Positions 8,501 through 11,377 are shown, counted from the first letter of the stretch. The stretch is DNA of 64,000 bases from Deltaproteobacteria bacterium (GCA_013152945.1 JAADFL010000205.1:23301-87300); one strand, 5' to 3'. Made by a program: numbers and translations. The notes: a model not told the origin generated them from the sequence alone.

Positions 8501-11075
8501 GACTCCAGACGACCCCGCTCCTCCGCTAACAGAGCCGAAGGTGGAAGTGGTGGATGCGAACGGCGGCGTGTACACGTACAAGTATGACTCGTTCTACGAG
8601 ATGGTGTCGGTAACTTTGCCGGACGGCACCGAGATAGACATGACAAACGCAGACTGCCTGATGCCTTCGTCAGTGAGAATGCCGGACGGATCGACGACCA
8701 CCACCTATTACGACGAGTGGGGCCGTATCATCAAGGAGTCTTCGCCGCTGGGACAACGCTCATTCGATTACGACTTCCAACGCGGCCTGCTCACCAGCCT
8801 CACCACCTGGGGCGGGAAGATATTCAACTACACCTATTACGACGACGGAGACCTGAAGGAAGTTTTGGACAATTACGGGAAGCCGAAGTTCACCTTGGCC
8901 TATACGGACGACGGACAGATTAAGTCCATTACCGACGCCACCGGCGTCACCACCACGTACTCGTACGACGGCATGGGCAACCTCGAGACCGTATCGAGCG
9001 TCCTGGGCACCCATCTGACCTTCAATAGGGATGCGCGTGGAAACGTGGTGCGGGTGGAGGATCCTGGGGTCACCACGGGGCTGGATTACGACTCGATGGA
9101 CAGGGTTGTAAAGGTGACGGACGGGAACGGCGACGAGCACGTCATATCCAGGGACGGCCAAGGTCTGGTGACCGGCTTTTCGTCCGGAGGAGTCGCCACT
9201 GCCCTGGGCCGCGACTCGGCAGGCCGGCTCATCTCGGTGTCCTTTGCGGGCGCGCCTGCATGGAGCCTGGAGTACGACGGCGAGGACAGGATCACGTCGA
9301 TAGGCAGCGCAGAAGGCAAGGTAGAAGTAGAGTACGGCCTAATGGGCAACATCGTCAAGAGGAGCATCACGTGGCAGGGAGGCTCACAGACAGCAATGTT
9401 CGATTACGATCCCGCCGGCAGGATGCTCTCTGCAAAGGACGACGACAGTTCGATAACCTTCGAGCGTGATCAGAGGACCAAGCTCGTCACCTCGGTTACC
9501 CAGTTCCACCATGGCATGGCAGAGCCCATAACCATTGGGTACAACATGAACGGAGACCAAGAGGCAGAGCAGGTCATCTATCCGGCCTTGACCGGGTTCC
9601 AAGGCGGCGAGTACGACTTCGACAGGGACGAGTTCACCGGCAGAGTAACCTCGACATGGGACCCGGACGGAAACACCTATGACTTTTTACGGGACGATGC
9701 AGGCAGGCTCACGGGCCTGCAGGTGAACGGGGGGCAGGATTTCGACGCAGAGTTCTCCAGGGACGCGGCAGGCAGGACCACGGGCGTAACCTATTACAAG
9801 GACTACTGGCGCGAGGCTGTGCTCCTTTCCGTGCAGGACGAGCTGGCCCTGGACGGAGTGAGGCTGCGCACCGTGTCGGCCGGCGTGACCATCGGCTACT
9901 CGTACGACGGGGTCCGCAGGTTGACCGGGGCCGTGTACTCTGACACGAGGCAGGACGAGTCATACTCTTACGACGCTAGAGGCGACCTGTCCGGCCAAGG
10001 CGTGTCTTACGACGAGTACAGGAGGCTGATTTCCGCCAATGGTTACGAGTACGAGTACGACCGGGCCGGCAGGGTCGTGAGGCGCACCCGCAGCAGTGAC
10101 TCGAGCAAGCTGGAGCTGTACTGGGACGGGGATGACAACCTGGTGCAGGTGGATGTTTACGGGCCTGGGGATACGGCGCCGGCCCACGTGGTAAAGTACA
10201 GGTACGACGCCTTCGGCCGGAGGATCGGAAGAGACGTGGACGGAGATATGGAGTTCTACATATACGACAGGGACAACCTGGCAATGATCGTGGACGACCA
10301 GGGCGCGTTGAAGGACTTCTTCCTGTACGGCAGCGAACTGGACAGGCCTGTTGTGATGTTCAGCCATGGGGAGAAGTACGGCATAATGACCGATACAATG
10401 GGCACTGTGCTGGGACTGGTGAGGCTGTCGGACCACACGGTGGTCTCGACCTGGAAGTACACGGCCCTCGGCGCCAGGGTGGAGCATACGGGCCAGGTGG
10501 ACTGCCCGATTGGCTTCCAGGGCAGGCTGCACGATACCTTGACCGGCCTGGTTTACTTCAGGACCAGGGAGTACGATCCGGCTGTAGGCCGCTTCCTGAG
10601 CACGGATCCTCTCAAGTTCACCAGCTTCGGCCACCCTTACGCCTTTCCCGGCATGGACCCGGTGAACAGGTCCGATCCCTTCGGCATGGGACCCAGGGCA
10701 GTAAAGGCGATTGGAGAAGGCGTGCTCACTTACAACGGTATGAAGGGCAAAATCGAGGGAGGCGTAGTCAAGGCTGCAGGAGGCGAAGGCTCCGGCACCG
10801 GCGAGGCTGCTCGGATGGCTTTCAAGACGGCCGGCAACGCAATGATAGACACTGCAAGCAAGGCTGCCAGCCTGACCCCGTACCAGGCCTATGGTCCGAG
10901 CGTCACCGACATGATCGGTTACGCGTACAAGGCGTACAAGGCAAAGAACCCGTGCGAGCGGGCCAAGGTGGGCGGCGAGATACTCACGGACATTGTTCCG
11001 GGAGGCAAGAAGTGGTTGAAGCCGCTGGTGGACGATTTCAACAACCTCGGCAACATGGTGCACGCGGGAAGGTGA
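5535..11075 (+). CDS. Rhs/YD-repeat family lipoprotein with carboxypeptidase-regulatory-like and NHL-repeat N-terminal region and divergent C-terminal domain
   Basis: AAGGAG RBS 7 nt upstream of ATG 5535; the ORF track starts at an upstream TTG. Signal peptide with an LLAC lipobox. NHL-like repeats (LYVCDEWSGVVYKV, LYISDQWNDRIRAIDPNGR). Dozens of YD repeats (YEYDEQGRLL, YEYDAYGRI, YSYDGMGNL). RHS core end (YDPAVGRFLSTDP ... DPFGM) followed by about 125 aa of unique sequence. Confidence 0.85.
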   Translation: MWSTEESGRRSSAWNVGSNGFLGFVAALAASTGLLACSGSNGSSSGGGGDKDKEIVCEGPAPSSEKAGFVRASVLRSDSGEPVKGAVVTLDGVEGCVSTGEDGMFKIPVPGGGAFKLRVRCTGTTGAMRRDIVSSGSSLSLGTIYLKDLDRAITRIGPSGGIHESSKGGLKLEFPVGSLARTVNVRATRFERSRDLPAPLPRTSHFTMAFEADVQGEALNKPVHVTLPNDYGFPPGTKVPVGAFDDKAGEWVPSGMGMVSEDGKTIEFDAKHLSSYDCNLPVTATDTPGVSRRDKKRPDKGCGRNGSGGSSEVDVRTGGLELEVEAPLGRTHGADRSLTLVYHSIAASPSAWIGGLRTENPGDLSEAPKYAGMEVQVEGVRHLVYLEAAEQENWVSFLWNGRDIDGNLKETGLYDAWLRAFYALPGVFATADVFGGPPVSSLGIEADELAEADAEVFAKLVLINQVDSPIAAGWSVAGLMSIHPHQDGTVLLVEGGESRGVFGRTGRLEIVAGDPDGGTDCGDGSPAQNRCLDYPVAVAAGPDGSVFVADSDSIRKVTPDGKWEMVYDGSSGNFDPVCLSVSPGGDLYVCDEWSGVVYKVNGSGLEKVAGGGQPYMPGLGMDPTVSHPTDVAFAPDGSMYIADWPYGLRRLAPDGTLHSLEPEGNPDYPAPYKIALGNDGSVYLAELKRCRVRRLLPDGTMITVAGRDSVCGFAGDGGFASKALLDHPNALVLAADGTLYISDQWNDRIRAIDPNGRIMTVAGKGAKSGSGFGFGGPALNGLVPRPEDLDMDGNGNLLTVYKGDGVVVRVDMQARLYGRPNGSTDSLELLSGGNYKMVSGMGAVIVFDKDGRMLERTDSHGRKTEYEYDEQGRLLRVRDDLGQVASLSYSGSGIEMIKAPDGRETRFEADPERNLVKVTFPDGTINSFSYGGNHLMSGWTDAEGRSASYEYDAYGRIKAVDRGAGRKREYKPLETQALLNDYIEAGLGKTPDDPAPPLTEPKVEVVDANGGVYTYKYDSFYEMVSVTLPDGTEIDMTNADCLMPSSVRMPDGSTTTTYYDEWGRIIKESSPLGQRSFDYDFQRGLLTSLTTWGGKIFNYTYYDDGDLKEVLDNYGKPKFTLAYTDDGQIKSITDATGVTTTYSYDGMGNLETVSSVLGTHLTFNRDARGNVVRVEDPGVTTGLDYDSMDRVVKVTDGNGDEHVISRDGQGLVTGFSSGGVATALGRDSAGRLISVSFAGAPAWSLEYDGEDRITSIGSAEGKVEVEYGLMGNIVKRSITWQGGSQTAMFDYDPAGRMLSAKDDDSSITFERDQRTKLVTSVTQFHHGMAEPITIGYNMNGDQEAEQVIYPALTGFQGGEYDFDRDEFTGRVTSTWDPDGNTYDFLRDDAGRLTGLQVNGGQDFDAEFSRDAAGRTTGVTYYKDYWREAVLLSVQDELALDGVRLRTVSAGVTIGYSYDGVRRLTGAVYSDTRQDESYSYDARGDLSGQGVSYDEYRRLISANGYEYEYDRAGRVVRRTRSSDSSKLELYWDGDDNLVQVDVYGPGDTAPAHVVKYRYDAFGRRIGRDVDGDMEFYIYDRDNLAMIVDDQGALKDFFLYGSELDRPVVMFSHGEKYGIMTDTMGTVLGLVRLSDHTVVSTWKYTALGARVEHTGQVDCPIGFQGRLHDTLTGLVYFRTREYDPAVGRFLSTDPLKFTSFGHPYAFPGMDPVNRSDPFGMGPRAVKAIGEGVLTYNGMKGKIEGGVVKAAGGEGSGTGEAARMAFKTAGNAMIDTASKAASLTPYQAYGPSVTDMIGYAYKAYKAKNPCERAKVGGEILTDIVPGGKKWLKPLVDDFNNLGNMVHAGR

Positions 11076-11281
11076 GGCCCCCGACATATCGGCAATGCTT
11101 GAATCAGTTTGCCTTTCGGCCATAGGAAGCATGACTTTATTGCTGTTTCCTTGCCGTGTTTATCAAATGAGGAAATTCAAGTCCCCGGTCTCCCAGCTTT
11201 TGTACCTGGTCGATTATTTTTGAGGCCTGGCAAGGCAATACCTGTTGTGAGCCACATGAGTTACGGCAACTTCATTTTACC

Positions 11282-11309
11282 TTGACACTGTGCGCTTCAG
11301 GATTATGAT
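11282..11309 (+). promoter_or_regulatory. Candidate sigma70-type promoter (TTGACA-16nt-TATGAT) upstream of phasin-like/parA genes
   Basis: TTGACA at 11282..11287, a 16-nt spacer, and TATGAT at 11304..11309, about 70 nt upstream of the 11378 ATG. Confidence 0.3.
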
Positions 11310-11377
11310 ACACTGCGTCAACCGGGTGGGTGGCGCTAACCGGCATTATTGCGAGAGAAGTCGTGGAGGAGGAATTA

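Follow-up and report, generated by a model that had tools for sequence, protein, structure and literature searches.

Does the C-terminal tail of an Rhs-type protein that has no immunity gene beside it still represent a toxin of the usual exchangeable kind? This question was raised by a gene in a 64,000-nucleotide stretch of DNA from a Deltaproteobacteria bacterium (GCA_013152945.1, JAADFL010000205.1:23301-87300), referred to below as the window, in which all positions are counted from the first letter. A first-pass annotation, made from the DNA alone, had described the end of this gene as an Rhs C-terminal polymorphic domain of unknown function with no obvious cognate immunity gene, and had proposed either a payload that is not antibacterial, an immunity gene that is very small or located elsewhere, or a non-toxic effector at the tip. 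The analysis reported here places the protein among the bacterial teneurin-like proteins (TLPs) and indicates that its tail is best described, from sequence comparisons, as the conserved C-terminal cargo of a TLP without an adjacent immunity gene and not as an ordinary swappable toxin tip.

The tail is encoded at 10689..11075 (+ strand). Codons 10689..11072, which read GPRAVKAIGEG...NLGNMVHAGR, are followed by a TGA stop (11073..11075) and specify 128 residues (13.2 kDa, pI 9.5), slightly more than the 125 or so first counted after DPFGM. The composition described previously, rich in Gly, Ala and Lys with a single Cys, was borne out by counting (G 16%, A 14%, K 10%); the Cys is residue 1824 (nucleotides 10953..10955) and lies 39 residues from the C-terminus. 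Residue numbers are counted here from the TTG at 5484 that begins the mechanically called open reading frame (ORF), and numbering from the ATG at 5535 is obtained by subtracting 17.

All homologues of the tail that were found occupy the C-terminal end of TLPs about 1830 residues long. A search with the Rhs core plus the tail recovered a protein (P0001) that is 53% identical up to the same C-terminus, and an exhaustive phmmer search with the tail over 1.84 billion representatives returned three real matches (P0009, P0010, and P0013), all at the extreme C-terminus of TLPs of 1827-1839 residues, together with two matches that are low-complexity repeat proteins. No other protein architecture carrying the tail was found among these 1.84 billion representatives, and no match was obtained by tblastn against plasmids. 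Word-index searches with the tail or its profile missed homologues that do exist, and their negative results reflect the limits of these tools and are not evidence. Pattern scans added five genome loci, all in metagenome-assembled genomes (MAGs; named Deltaproteobacteria bacterium, Anaeromyxobacteraceae, Myxococcales, Sandaracinaceae, and "bacterium"), and six further metagenome loci, so that about nine Myxococcota-type lineages are represented once duplicates are removed. Judged from these searches, the tail is a small family restricted to orthologous TLPs of Myxococcota-type MAGs.

The term "polymorphic" did not survive the comparison of these orthologues, since the same tail is carried by about nine diverged lineages, with neither hypervariability nor decoupling from the YD-repeat shell that precedes it. 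Full-length orthologues are 42-48% identical, and the mean identity over 28 pairs was 49.4% for the last 500 residues of the shell and 48.9% for the tails. In the subclade formed by loci L006, L007, L011, and L014, tail identity (67-88%) even exceeded shell identity (58-69%). Ratios of nonsynonymous to synonymous substitution (dN/dS) calculated by the Nei-Gojobori method were 0.12-0.20 in the tail, no higher than in the adjacent shell (0.17-0.33); for the unsaturated pair L002/L009 (dS 0.16-0.17), they were 0.14 and 0.165, respectively. On this sequence evidence, the tail is as conserved as the shell, under purifying selection and co-inherited with it.

The DNA that follows the tail was analyzed with ORF, promoter, and Rfam scans. 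A 302-bp intergenic gap of host-like composition (11076..11377) contains no conserved ORF, no Rfam family and, as first noted, no ORF of at least 60 residues. The search for shorter ORFs that had been suggested for this interval yielded one of 58 residues (11109..11285, TTG start), the largest, and one of 42 residues (11095..11223, ATG start), the latter without a counterpart elsewhere. The earlier description of about 300 bp of DNA with a sigma70-like promoter in front of a phasin-like gene was correct as to the gap and the promoter-like site: TTGACA-16-TATGAT at 11282..11309 gives 11 of 12 matches, in a scanned region with two sites where 0.5 were expected, and this candidate promoter would serve the gene after the gap. 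That gene (11378..11701, + strand), which lies outside the feature under study, encodes a 107-residue coiled-coil protein whose resemblance to phasins is weak (Pfam Phasin, 20.2 bits, below the cut-off of 28.8), and it is followed by a parA gene (11719..12525, + strand; Pfam AAA_31/ParA, 138 bits). Both were rejected as partners of the tail: their GC content at third codon positions (GC3) is host-like (0.61 and 0.58), they have a promoter-like site of their own, and they are absent from the orthologous loci.

At the orthologous loci, a convergent MFS transporter gene begins at the first base past the tail stop (L002/L009), a convergent S8 peptidase gene overlaps the stop (L003/L016), or a convergent SGL-propeller gene begins 5 nucleotides past it (L006/L012/L013); in L004, the downstream gene is on the same strand and encodes a 332-residue protein of unknown function, which is neither small nor conserved elsewhere. 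The SGL-propeller gene (L006, L011, and L014) was also discarded as a partner, being on the opposite strand and syntenic within one subclade. Comparisons of all flanks by tblastn and tblastx detected no common neighbour other than synteny in close relatives, and nothing resembling the gap DNA of the window. No conserved or same-strand small downstream gene was found at any orthologous locus, and the lack of an obvious cognate immunity gene, including a small one in the same operon, therefore holds at all of them as it does in the window. Judged by sequence, this clade lacks both hallmarks of a polymorphic toxin-immunity system, namely a variable tip and an adjacent immunity gene. At locus L001 (760..1156; JGI Ga0209800_10124300), the DNA downstream of the tail contains GC-rich palindromic units in several copies (CCCGGGGCCTTCGGCGTC...GACGCC and GGCCGGGCCGCCCGGGGGGCGGGCCG), which resemble intergenic repeats of the repetitive extragenic palindromic (REP) type.

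The composition of the gene points in the same direction. GC3 was 0.78 in the shell and 0.74 in the tail versus 0.51-0.63 in 23 other genes of the window, and the gene as a whole has a GC content of 0.61 versus 0.52 for the window, falling at both gene ends (island 5400..11100). Composition did not break between shell and tail, as it does where an Rhs tip has been displaced. The island showed neither flanking repeats nor genes of mobile elements; at the orthologous loci, the GC content of the gene was within about 4-7 points of that of its flanks. This single-gene island suggests a recent horizontal acquisition from a higher-GC, Myxococcota-like donor, and since it spans one gene, the foreign DNA appears to consist of the TLP gene alone, with nothing co-transferred.

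What, then, is the protein that carries this tail? TLPs were first noted by Jackson et al. in 2018 (PMC5851990), and the structure of one of them, BiTLP of Bacillus inaquosorum (PDB 9pt5/9ifo), was solved by Raoelijaona et al. (Nat Commun 2026, PMC13018210). They possess an FN-plug/NHL/YD-shell superfold, preceded by TTR and TIP domains, and a polymorphic C-terminal domain (CTD) of about 15 kDa, which is cleaved off at the Rhs core and housed inside the shell (PMC13018210). The best relatives of our protein in the PDB were the two BiTLP entries (9pt5_A, E 3.8e-83; 9ifo_A, E 1.7e-82); the matches lie in the TTR/TIP region as well as in the NHL repeats, shell, and core, and type VI secretion system (T6SS) Rhs effectors, teneurins, and Tc toxins scored far lower. 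The tail was thus rightly regarded as the post-cleavage CTD of an Rhs/YD-shell protein; its host, judged by the succession of lipobox, TTR/TIP, FN-plug, NHL, YD shell, and Rhs core, is a bacterial TLP and not a classical T6SS- or Tc-type Rhs protein.

The gene is an intact ORF extending from TTG 5484 to 11075 (+ strand). The TTG is the start of the mechanical ORF only; a Shine-Dalgarno sequence AAGGAG (5523..5528), read from the sequence, is placed 6 nucleotides before the likely true start, ATG 5535..5537 (whole element 5523..5537, + strand), from which a product of 1846 residues is specified. A predicted lipoprotein signal peptide follows (5535..5645, + strand; MWSTEESGRRSSAWNVGSNGFLGFVAALAASTGLLAC|SG, read from the sequence), with a lipobox L-L-A-C whose Cys is residue 54 (5643..5645). 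A Cys behind a hydrophobic stretch was present in all six full-length members (five lineages), and five of the six (four of the five lineages) fitted the lipobox pattern. Myxococcota TLPs have been reported with lipoprotein signals of the signal peptidase II (SPII) type (PMC13018210). The TTR (carboxypeptidase-regulatory-like) and TIP-like domains occupy 5751..6353 (+ strand), as indicated by Pfam matches below the cut-off (CarboxypepD_reg, residues 90-150; FAM171-N-like, residues 235-285) and by a phmmer alignment of residues 66-260, here numbered from ATG 5535, with BiTLP 399-628.

The FN-plug region was placed at 6354..7073 (+ strand; borders approximate) by comparing a family profile with BiTLP. 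The match is borderline: a profile of residues 255-560 from five family members recovered 9ifo_A with E 0.0014 and 9pt5_A with E 0.0021, in collinear pieces of BiTLP (607-627, 683-724, and 802-960). It places HLSSYDCN...C319GRNGS on BiTLP HFSAPWDCNW...C719NKEG|S724, with an H(L/F)S..DCN motif preceding the loop. The region contains the invariant Cys295 and Cys319, the latter in the motif C319-G-R-N-G323|S324 (6438..6455), and the position aligned with BiTLP S724 is Ser or Thr in every family member. By analogy, the C-G-R-N-G|S loop is predicted to hold a second autoproteolytic site and a tether cysteine. Between plug and shell lies an NHL beta-propeller (7101..7949, + strand), recognized by Pfam TEN_NHL (95 bits, cut-off 27.1, residues 549-776) and NHL repeats, with which the NHL repeats of BiTLP align. 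The YD/RHS-repeat shell (7950..10457, + strand) matches Pfam RHS_repeat in eight stretches (186 bits), NCBIfam YD_repeat_2x (138 bits), and the teneurin YD-shell model of Pfam. In an AlphaFold2 (AF2) model of 1041 residues comprising shell and tail, the shell part formed a beta-hairpin array, and Foldseek aligned this model with Rhs, TLP, and teneurin shells (E 1e-46 to 1e-35) at TM-scores of about 0.2, at which the global geometry is unreliable. Besides Cys295, Cys319, and the tail Cys1824, the invariant cysteines are 74/113 in the TTR domain and 538/548 in the NHL domain.

The Rhs-associated core (10458..10688, + strand; residues 1659-1735) was identified by NCBIfam Rhs_assc_core (TIGR03696, 66.9 bits versus a cut-off of 32.5) and by alignment with BiTLP. 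It ends in ...HPYAFPGMDPVNRSDPFGM (DPFGM) at nucleotide 10688, and phmmer aligned FRTREYDPAVGRFLSTDPLKFTSFG-HPYAFPGMDPVNRSDPFGM|G residue by residue with BiTLP FGYRDYEPASGRWTAQDPILFRSGDFNLYAYVHNNPVTLRDPSGL|I. In BiTLP, R2103, D2116, and D2140 are catalytic and cleavage occurs after L2144 (PMC13018210); the corresponding R1695 (10566..10568), D1708 (10605..10607), and D1731 (10674..10676) are invariant in all family members. The aspartyl-autoprotease motif had been called degenerate, and it does depart from the textbook consensus: the first motif reads DPLK, not DPxG, and the second DPxG is followed by M, A, T, or V instead of L. Replacement of the first-motif Gly has been described in the TLPs of some species (PMC13018210). 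Because the catalytic Arg and the two Asp residues are retained without variation throughout the family, the motif has diverged in sequence without degeneration of its catalytic residues. By analogy with BiTLP, a cut is predicted after M1735, between nucleotides 10688 and 10689.

The tails, which range from 116 to 129 residues across the family, can be divided into three parts: the conserved opening stretch GP(P)RAV...Y; a variable middle that is rich in Gly and Ala and has insertions and deletions; and a conserved C-terminal module of about 55 residues. The invariant alignment columns of the module (10893..11039, + strand) read GPS.(T)D...Y.Y.A(Y/W).AK(D/N)(P/D)C.RA.VGG...VD.F, and mean pairwise column identity was 0.46 in the module versus 0.18 in the middle. 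Every tail contains exactly one Cys, and Gly, Ala, Tyr, Lys, Arg, and Cys make up most of the invariant positions. No invariant His was found in the tail alignment, and a Cys-His enzyme was rejected on this ground. The tails have a pI of 8-10 and no transmembrane-like segment (maximum 19-residue Kyte-Doolittle value <=1.07). The most amphipathic segment, KKWLKPLVDDFNNLGNMV (11007..11060, + strand), corresponds in each case to a conserved, predicted C-terminal helix; its helical hydrophobic moment peaked at 0.60-0.68 in the equivalent place in each of the six members tested, a value matched by shuffled sequences in 0-4% of trials. Taken together, these features give the tail a non-enzymatic look.

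In agreement with the first impression that the tail resembles no recognized toxin fold, neither the tail nor its profile matched any family in Pfam, NCBIfam, PADLOC, or the PDB, and on sequence grounds the tail appears neither to be a toxin domain shared with other scaffolds nor to have a recognizable toxin fold. Structure prediction, suggested earlier as a check, was carried out with AF2 and also gave no recognized fold: the tail alone (alignment of five sequences) was modelled as all-helical with a predicted local distance difference test (pLDDT) score of 44, and within the shell-plus-tail model its pLDDT was 21-38. Such low model confidence fits part-folded cargo in a cocoon and a shallow alignment equally well. 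Homology to the CTD of BiTLP was discarded (hhalign probability 0.07%). Around the putative tether cysteines, the tail reads AKNPCER (tail residues 84-92, nucleotides 10938..10964) and BiTLP reads ANKCPER (2212-2219), a likeness that could be coincidence or at most a lead, such as a shared motif for docking to the FN-plug loop.

Our favoured explanation, to which we would give about an even chance, makes the tail a monomorphic effector without enzymatic activity: it would be cleaved off, enclosed, and tethered in the manner of BiTLP, and would act on targets that the producer lacks. In BiTLP, the cleaved CTD lies against the inner wall of the shell and its C2216 is disulfide-bonded to C719 of the FN-plug, four residues before the second self-cleavage site G723|S724 (PMC13018210). 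By extension, the TLP studied here would be exported by the Sec pathway, lipidated, and folded outside the cytoplasm; the Rhs core would cut after ...DPFGM, and the tail would be kept, largely unfolded or helical, in the closed YD shell, with its sole Cys held by a disulfide to Cys319 of the FN-plug, beside the second G|S self-cleavage site. A C319-C1824 tether is plausible by analogy, because the invariant C319 aligns with BiTLP C719 and the tail Cys is itself invariant; C295 is an alternative partner. The effector might, for example, be an amphipathic binding peptide or a membrane-active one, with a target that is absent from or inaccessible in the producer, as would be found in prey or eukaryotes. 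In that case, no immunity protein would be needed, and no arms race would drive the swapping of tips.

Several points weigh against this explanation. Three invariant cysteines (295, 319, and 1824) are otherwise unpaired, and the C319-C1824 pairing is not forced. According to Raoelijaona et al. (PMC13018210), an immunity gene follows "almost all" TLP genes and toxicity is reported for only some of the CTDs, and the default expectation is therefore a toxin-immunity pair; their examples include an immunity protein of 43 residues, and an ORF of 42 residues is present in the gap. With the AF2 scores given above, no fold could be assigned to the tail, and the term "non-enzymatic" derives from residue conservation in only 8-10 sequences. 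The trees built from tails and from shells agree only loosely (Spearman 0.33, p 0.09). Finally, we infer cleavage, encapsulation, and lipoprotein fate by analogy.

A somewhat unlikely alternative is that the tail is no toxin at all. The TLP would be a surface adhesion or recognition protein acting through its TTR, TIP, NHL, and shell surfaces, and the tail a structural filler or tether that aids folding or closure of the shell, in a bacterial parallel to metazoan teneurins. Such a role, for which both TLP papers leave room in the form of adhesion or communication (PMC13018210, PMC5851990), would suit a monomorphic tail whose purifying selection is no weaker than that of the shell and which has no immunity gene in about nine lineages, no catalytic-looking invariant residues, and no presence on another delivery scaffold. 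However, the aspartyl-protease residues, lost in metazoan teneurins, are strictly retained here, and a retained release mechanism argues for releasable cargo; a 55-residue motif with dN/dS of about 0.15 would also be unexpected of pure filler.

That the tail is a classical antibacterial toxin, with its immunity gene elsewhere in the genome or in a very small ORF, seems quite unlikely to us. Candidates would be the 42-residue ORF at 11095..11223, which is hydrophobic and begins 19 nucleotides past the stop, or the divergent lipoprotein-like ORF of 213 residues upstream (4397..5038, - strand); downstream immunity genes are, moreover, the rule for TLPs and can be as short as the 43-residue example (PMC13018210). 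Neither candidate was conserved: downstream of the stop, no orthologous locus contains a homologue of the 42-residue ORF, and a search of seven loci for the lipoprotein ORF yielded none either. In three lineages, a convergent gene that begins within 5 nucleotides of the stop or overlaps it leaves no room for a downstream ORF. According to the GC profile of the window, which does not measure the composition of individual ORFs, the lipoprotein ORF lies in low-GC DNA, and GC content returns to the flank level within about 300 bp past the stop, across the 42-residue ORF. The sole Shine-Dalgarno-like sequence in front of this short ORF lies about 17 nucleotides upstream of its ATG. A monomorphic toxin under purifying selection would also be atypical of toxin-immunity arms races. 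Of the three possibilities proposed in the first-pass annotation, a very small or distant immunity gene is therefore the least supported, because the 42-residue ORF is at the edge of the GC island and beyond it and lacks both a ribosome-binding site at a usable spacing and a counterpart at the other loci.

It is highly improbable that the tail is not encapsulated cargo but a C-terminal sorting or anchoring signal or, like its counterpart in metazoan teneurins, an external domain that stays uncleaved. A single, invariant Cys near the C-terminal end of a Myxococcota protein does recall Cys-containing sorting signals (bioRxiv 10.1101/2023.06.07.544157), but no NCBIfam model, those for sorting signals included, matches the tail, its Cys is distant from the C-terminus, a MYXO-CTERM-like signal, in which a Cys motif precedes a transmembrane helix and a basic cluster at the very C-terminus, was rejected for want of a hydrophobic helix or transmembrane segment, the protease residues are intact, and 128 residues are within the 100-150 typical of TLP C-termini that a shell can shield (PMC5851990).

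Returning to the tail as enclosed cargo, comparison with known systems shows how far the analogy reaches. Our protein shares with BiTLP the order TTR, TIP, FN-plug, NHL, YD shell, and Rhs core, a bipartite DPx(G/K)...DPxG aspartyl-protease site with a conserved Arg, an FN-plug loop in which a Cys is followed at equal spacing by G|S, and a Cys-bearing CTD of about 13-15 kDa (13.2 kDa here), small enough for the shell cavity. It also has a lipoprotein-type signal, as reported for Myxococcota TLPs, and no dedicated secretion machinery nearby. In contrast, its tail is hydrophilic, whereas the CTD of BiTLP is hydrophobic with a predicted transmembrane region, and the two resemble each other neither in sequence nor in profile comparison; within the clade, the CTD is conserved instead of hypervariable, and no member has a candidate immunity gene downstream.

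The T6SS Rhs effectors (RhsA 7q97, RhsP 8h8a, and Tse15 8uxt) likewise have a YD-repeat cocoon, C-terminal aspartyl autoproteolysis, a toxin held in the shell, and a second, N-terminal cleavage. They differ in that Sec export with a lipobox is predicted here, in that an FN-plug and an NHL propeller replace the PAAR/prePAAR N-terminus, and in the monomorphic tip without an immunity gene. Domains of PAAR, VgrG, T6SS, Tc, and other delivery systems were absent from the TLP and from the 26 larger ORFs of the window that were scanned, a set that does not include every small ORF. In the TcB-TcC cocoons of Tc toxins (TcdB2-TccC3, 4o9x; YenB-YenC2, 4igl), the C-terminal region is cut from an Rhs cocoon by the same type of aspartyl protease and is unfolded inside. 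Tc toxins need no immunity gene, as their targets are eukaryotic. Our protein differs from them in lacking TcA/TcB partner genes, in being a single chain with an FN-plug and an NHL propeller, and in having a tail that is not an ADP-ribosyltransferase or any other recognized enzyme. Metazoan teneurins (Ten2, 6fb3) also have a C-terminal region that is conserved within the family, not polymorphic, and no immunity partner, but they have lost the second catalytic Asp and are uncleaved, whereas our protein retains its protease residues and has a short tail that is unrelated to theirs.

The surroundings of the gene were also surveyed. A PADLOC scan returned nothing, and no tRNA or Rfam RNA was found across the whole window. 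Upstream, the lipoprotein-like ORF on the minus strand (4397..5038) overlaps a plus-strand ORF (4323..4790); the former is probably a real gene, with GGAGG six nucleotides before a GTG start and an N-terminus ending in ...LILTFMVTSC|SS, and it had no Pfam match and no homologue near orthologous TLPs. A 15-nucleotide tandem direct repeat lies at 4824..4853. Downstream, 11282..13402 looks like an operon consisting of the promoter-like site, the gene for the 107-residue protein, the parA gene 17 nucleotides later, and an acyltransferase gene whose mechanical ORF overlaps parA by 116 nucleotides and whose real start is probably later. The region is rich in secreted or surface proteins, among them a C25 (gingipain-type) peptidase with a propeptide (15816..19088, - strand), a subtilase (20157..22712), and a 1669-residue protein with PKD/He_PIG repeats (39303..44312, - strand). 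The window also encodes a selenocysteine synthase SelA (14333..15766, - strand), a 1000-residue protein in which an N-terminal PilZ domain (cyclic-di-GMP-binding type) is fused to a full Hsp70/DnaK domain (57302..60304, - strand), and a 486-residue protein (120..1580) with a Ser-Asp-repeat-like stretch at residues 30-110, which matches staphylococcal Sdr/Clf adhesins through low complexity alone.

The description published in 2026 presents TLPs as polymorphic toxins that come with immunity genes and from which animal teneurins descend (PMC13018210). A TLP clade whose monomorphic tail lacks an immunity gene and is under purifying selection is an exception to this picture, and it defines a new, so far unannotated CTD family of about 125 residues with the signature AK(D/N)(P/D)C.RA.VGG...VD.F. 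The single-gene island, if correctly read, shows that a TLP can be transferred horizontally as one gene without a partner. The features of the tail point either to an effector that is directed solely against non-self targets (prey or eukaryotes, for example) or to a role at the surface that is not toxic. They also offer a concrete case in which to study how a toxin with a YD shell could turn into a protein of adhesion or recognition. It is unlikely, in our estimation, that the clade as a whole has already left the toxin-immunity arms race, with a fixed, conserved cargo that has no immunity partner and is disulfide-tethered in its shell, and with the entire protein serving in cell-surface recognition or adhesion or in the delivery of non-lethal signals among social or predatory Myxococcota. 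If true, the clade would represent, in present-day bacteria, a counterpart of the step from a YD-shell toxin to the metazoan teneurin receptor.

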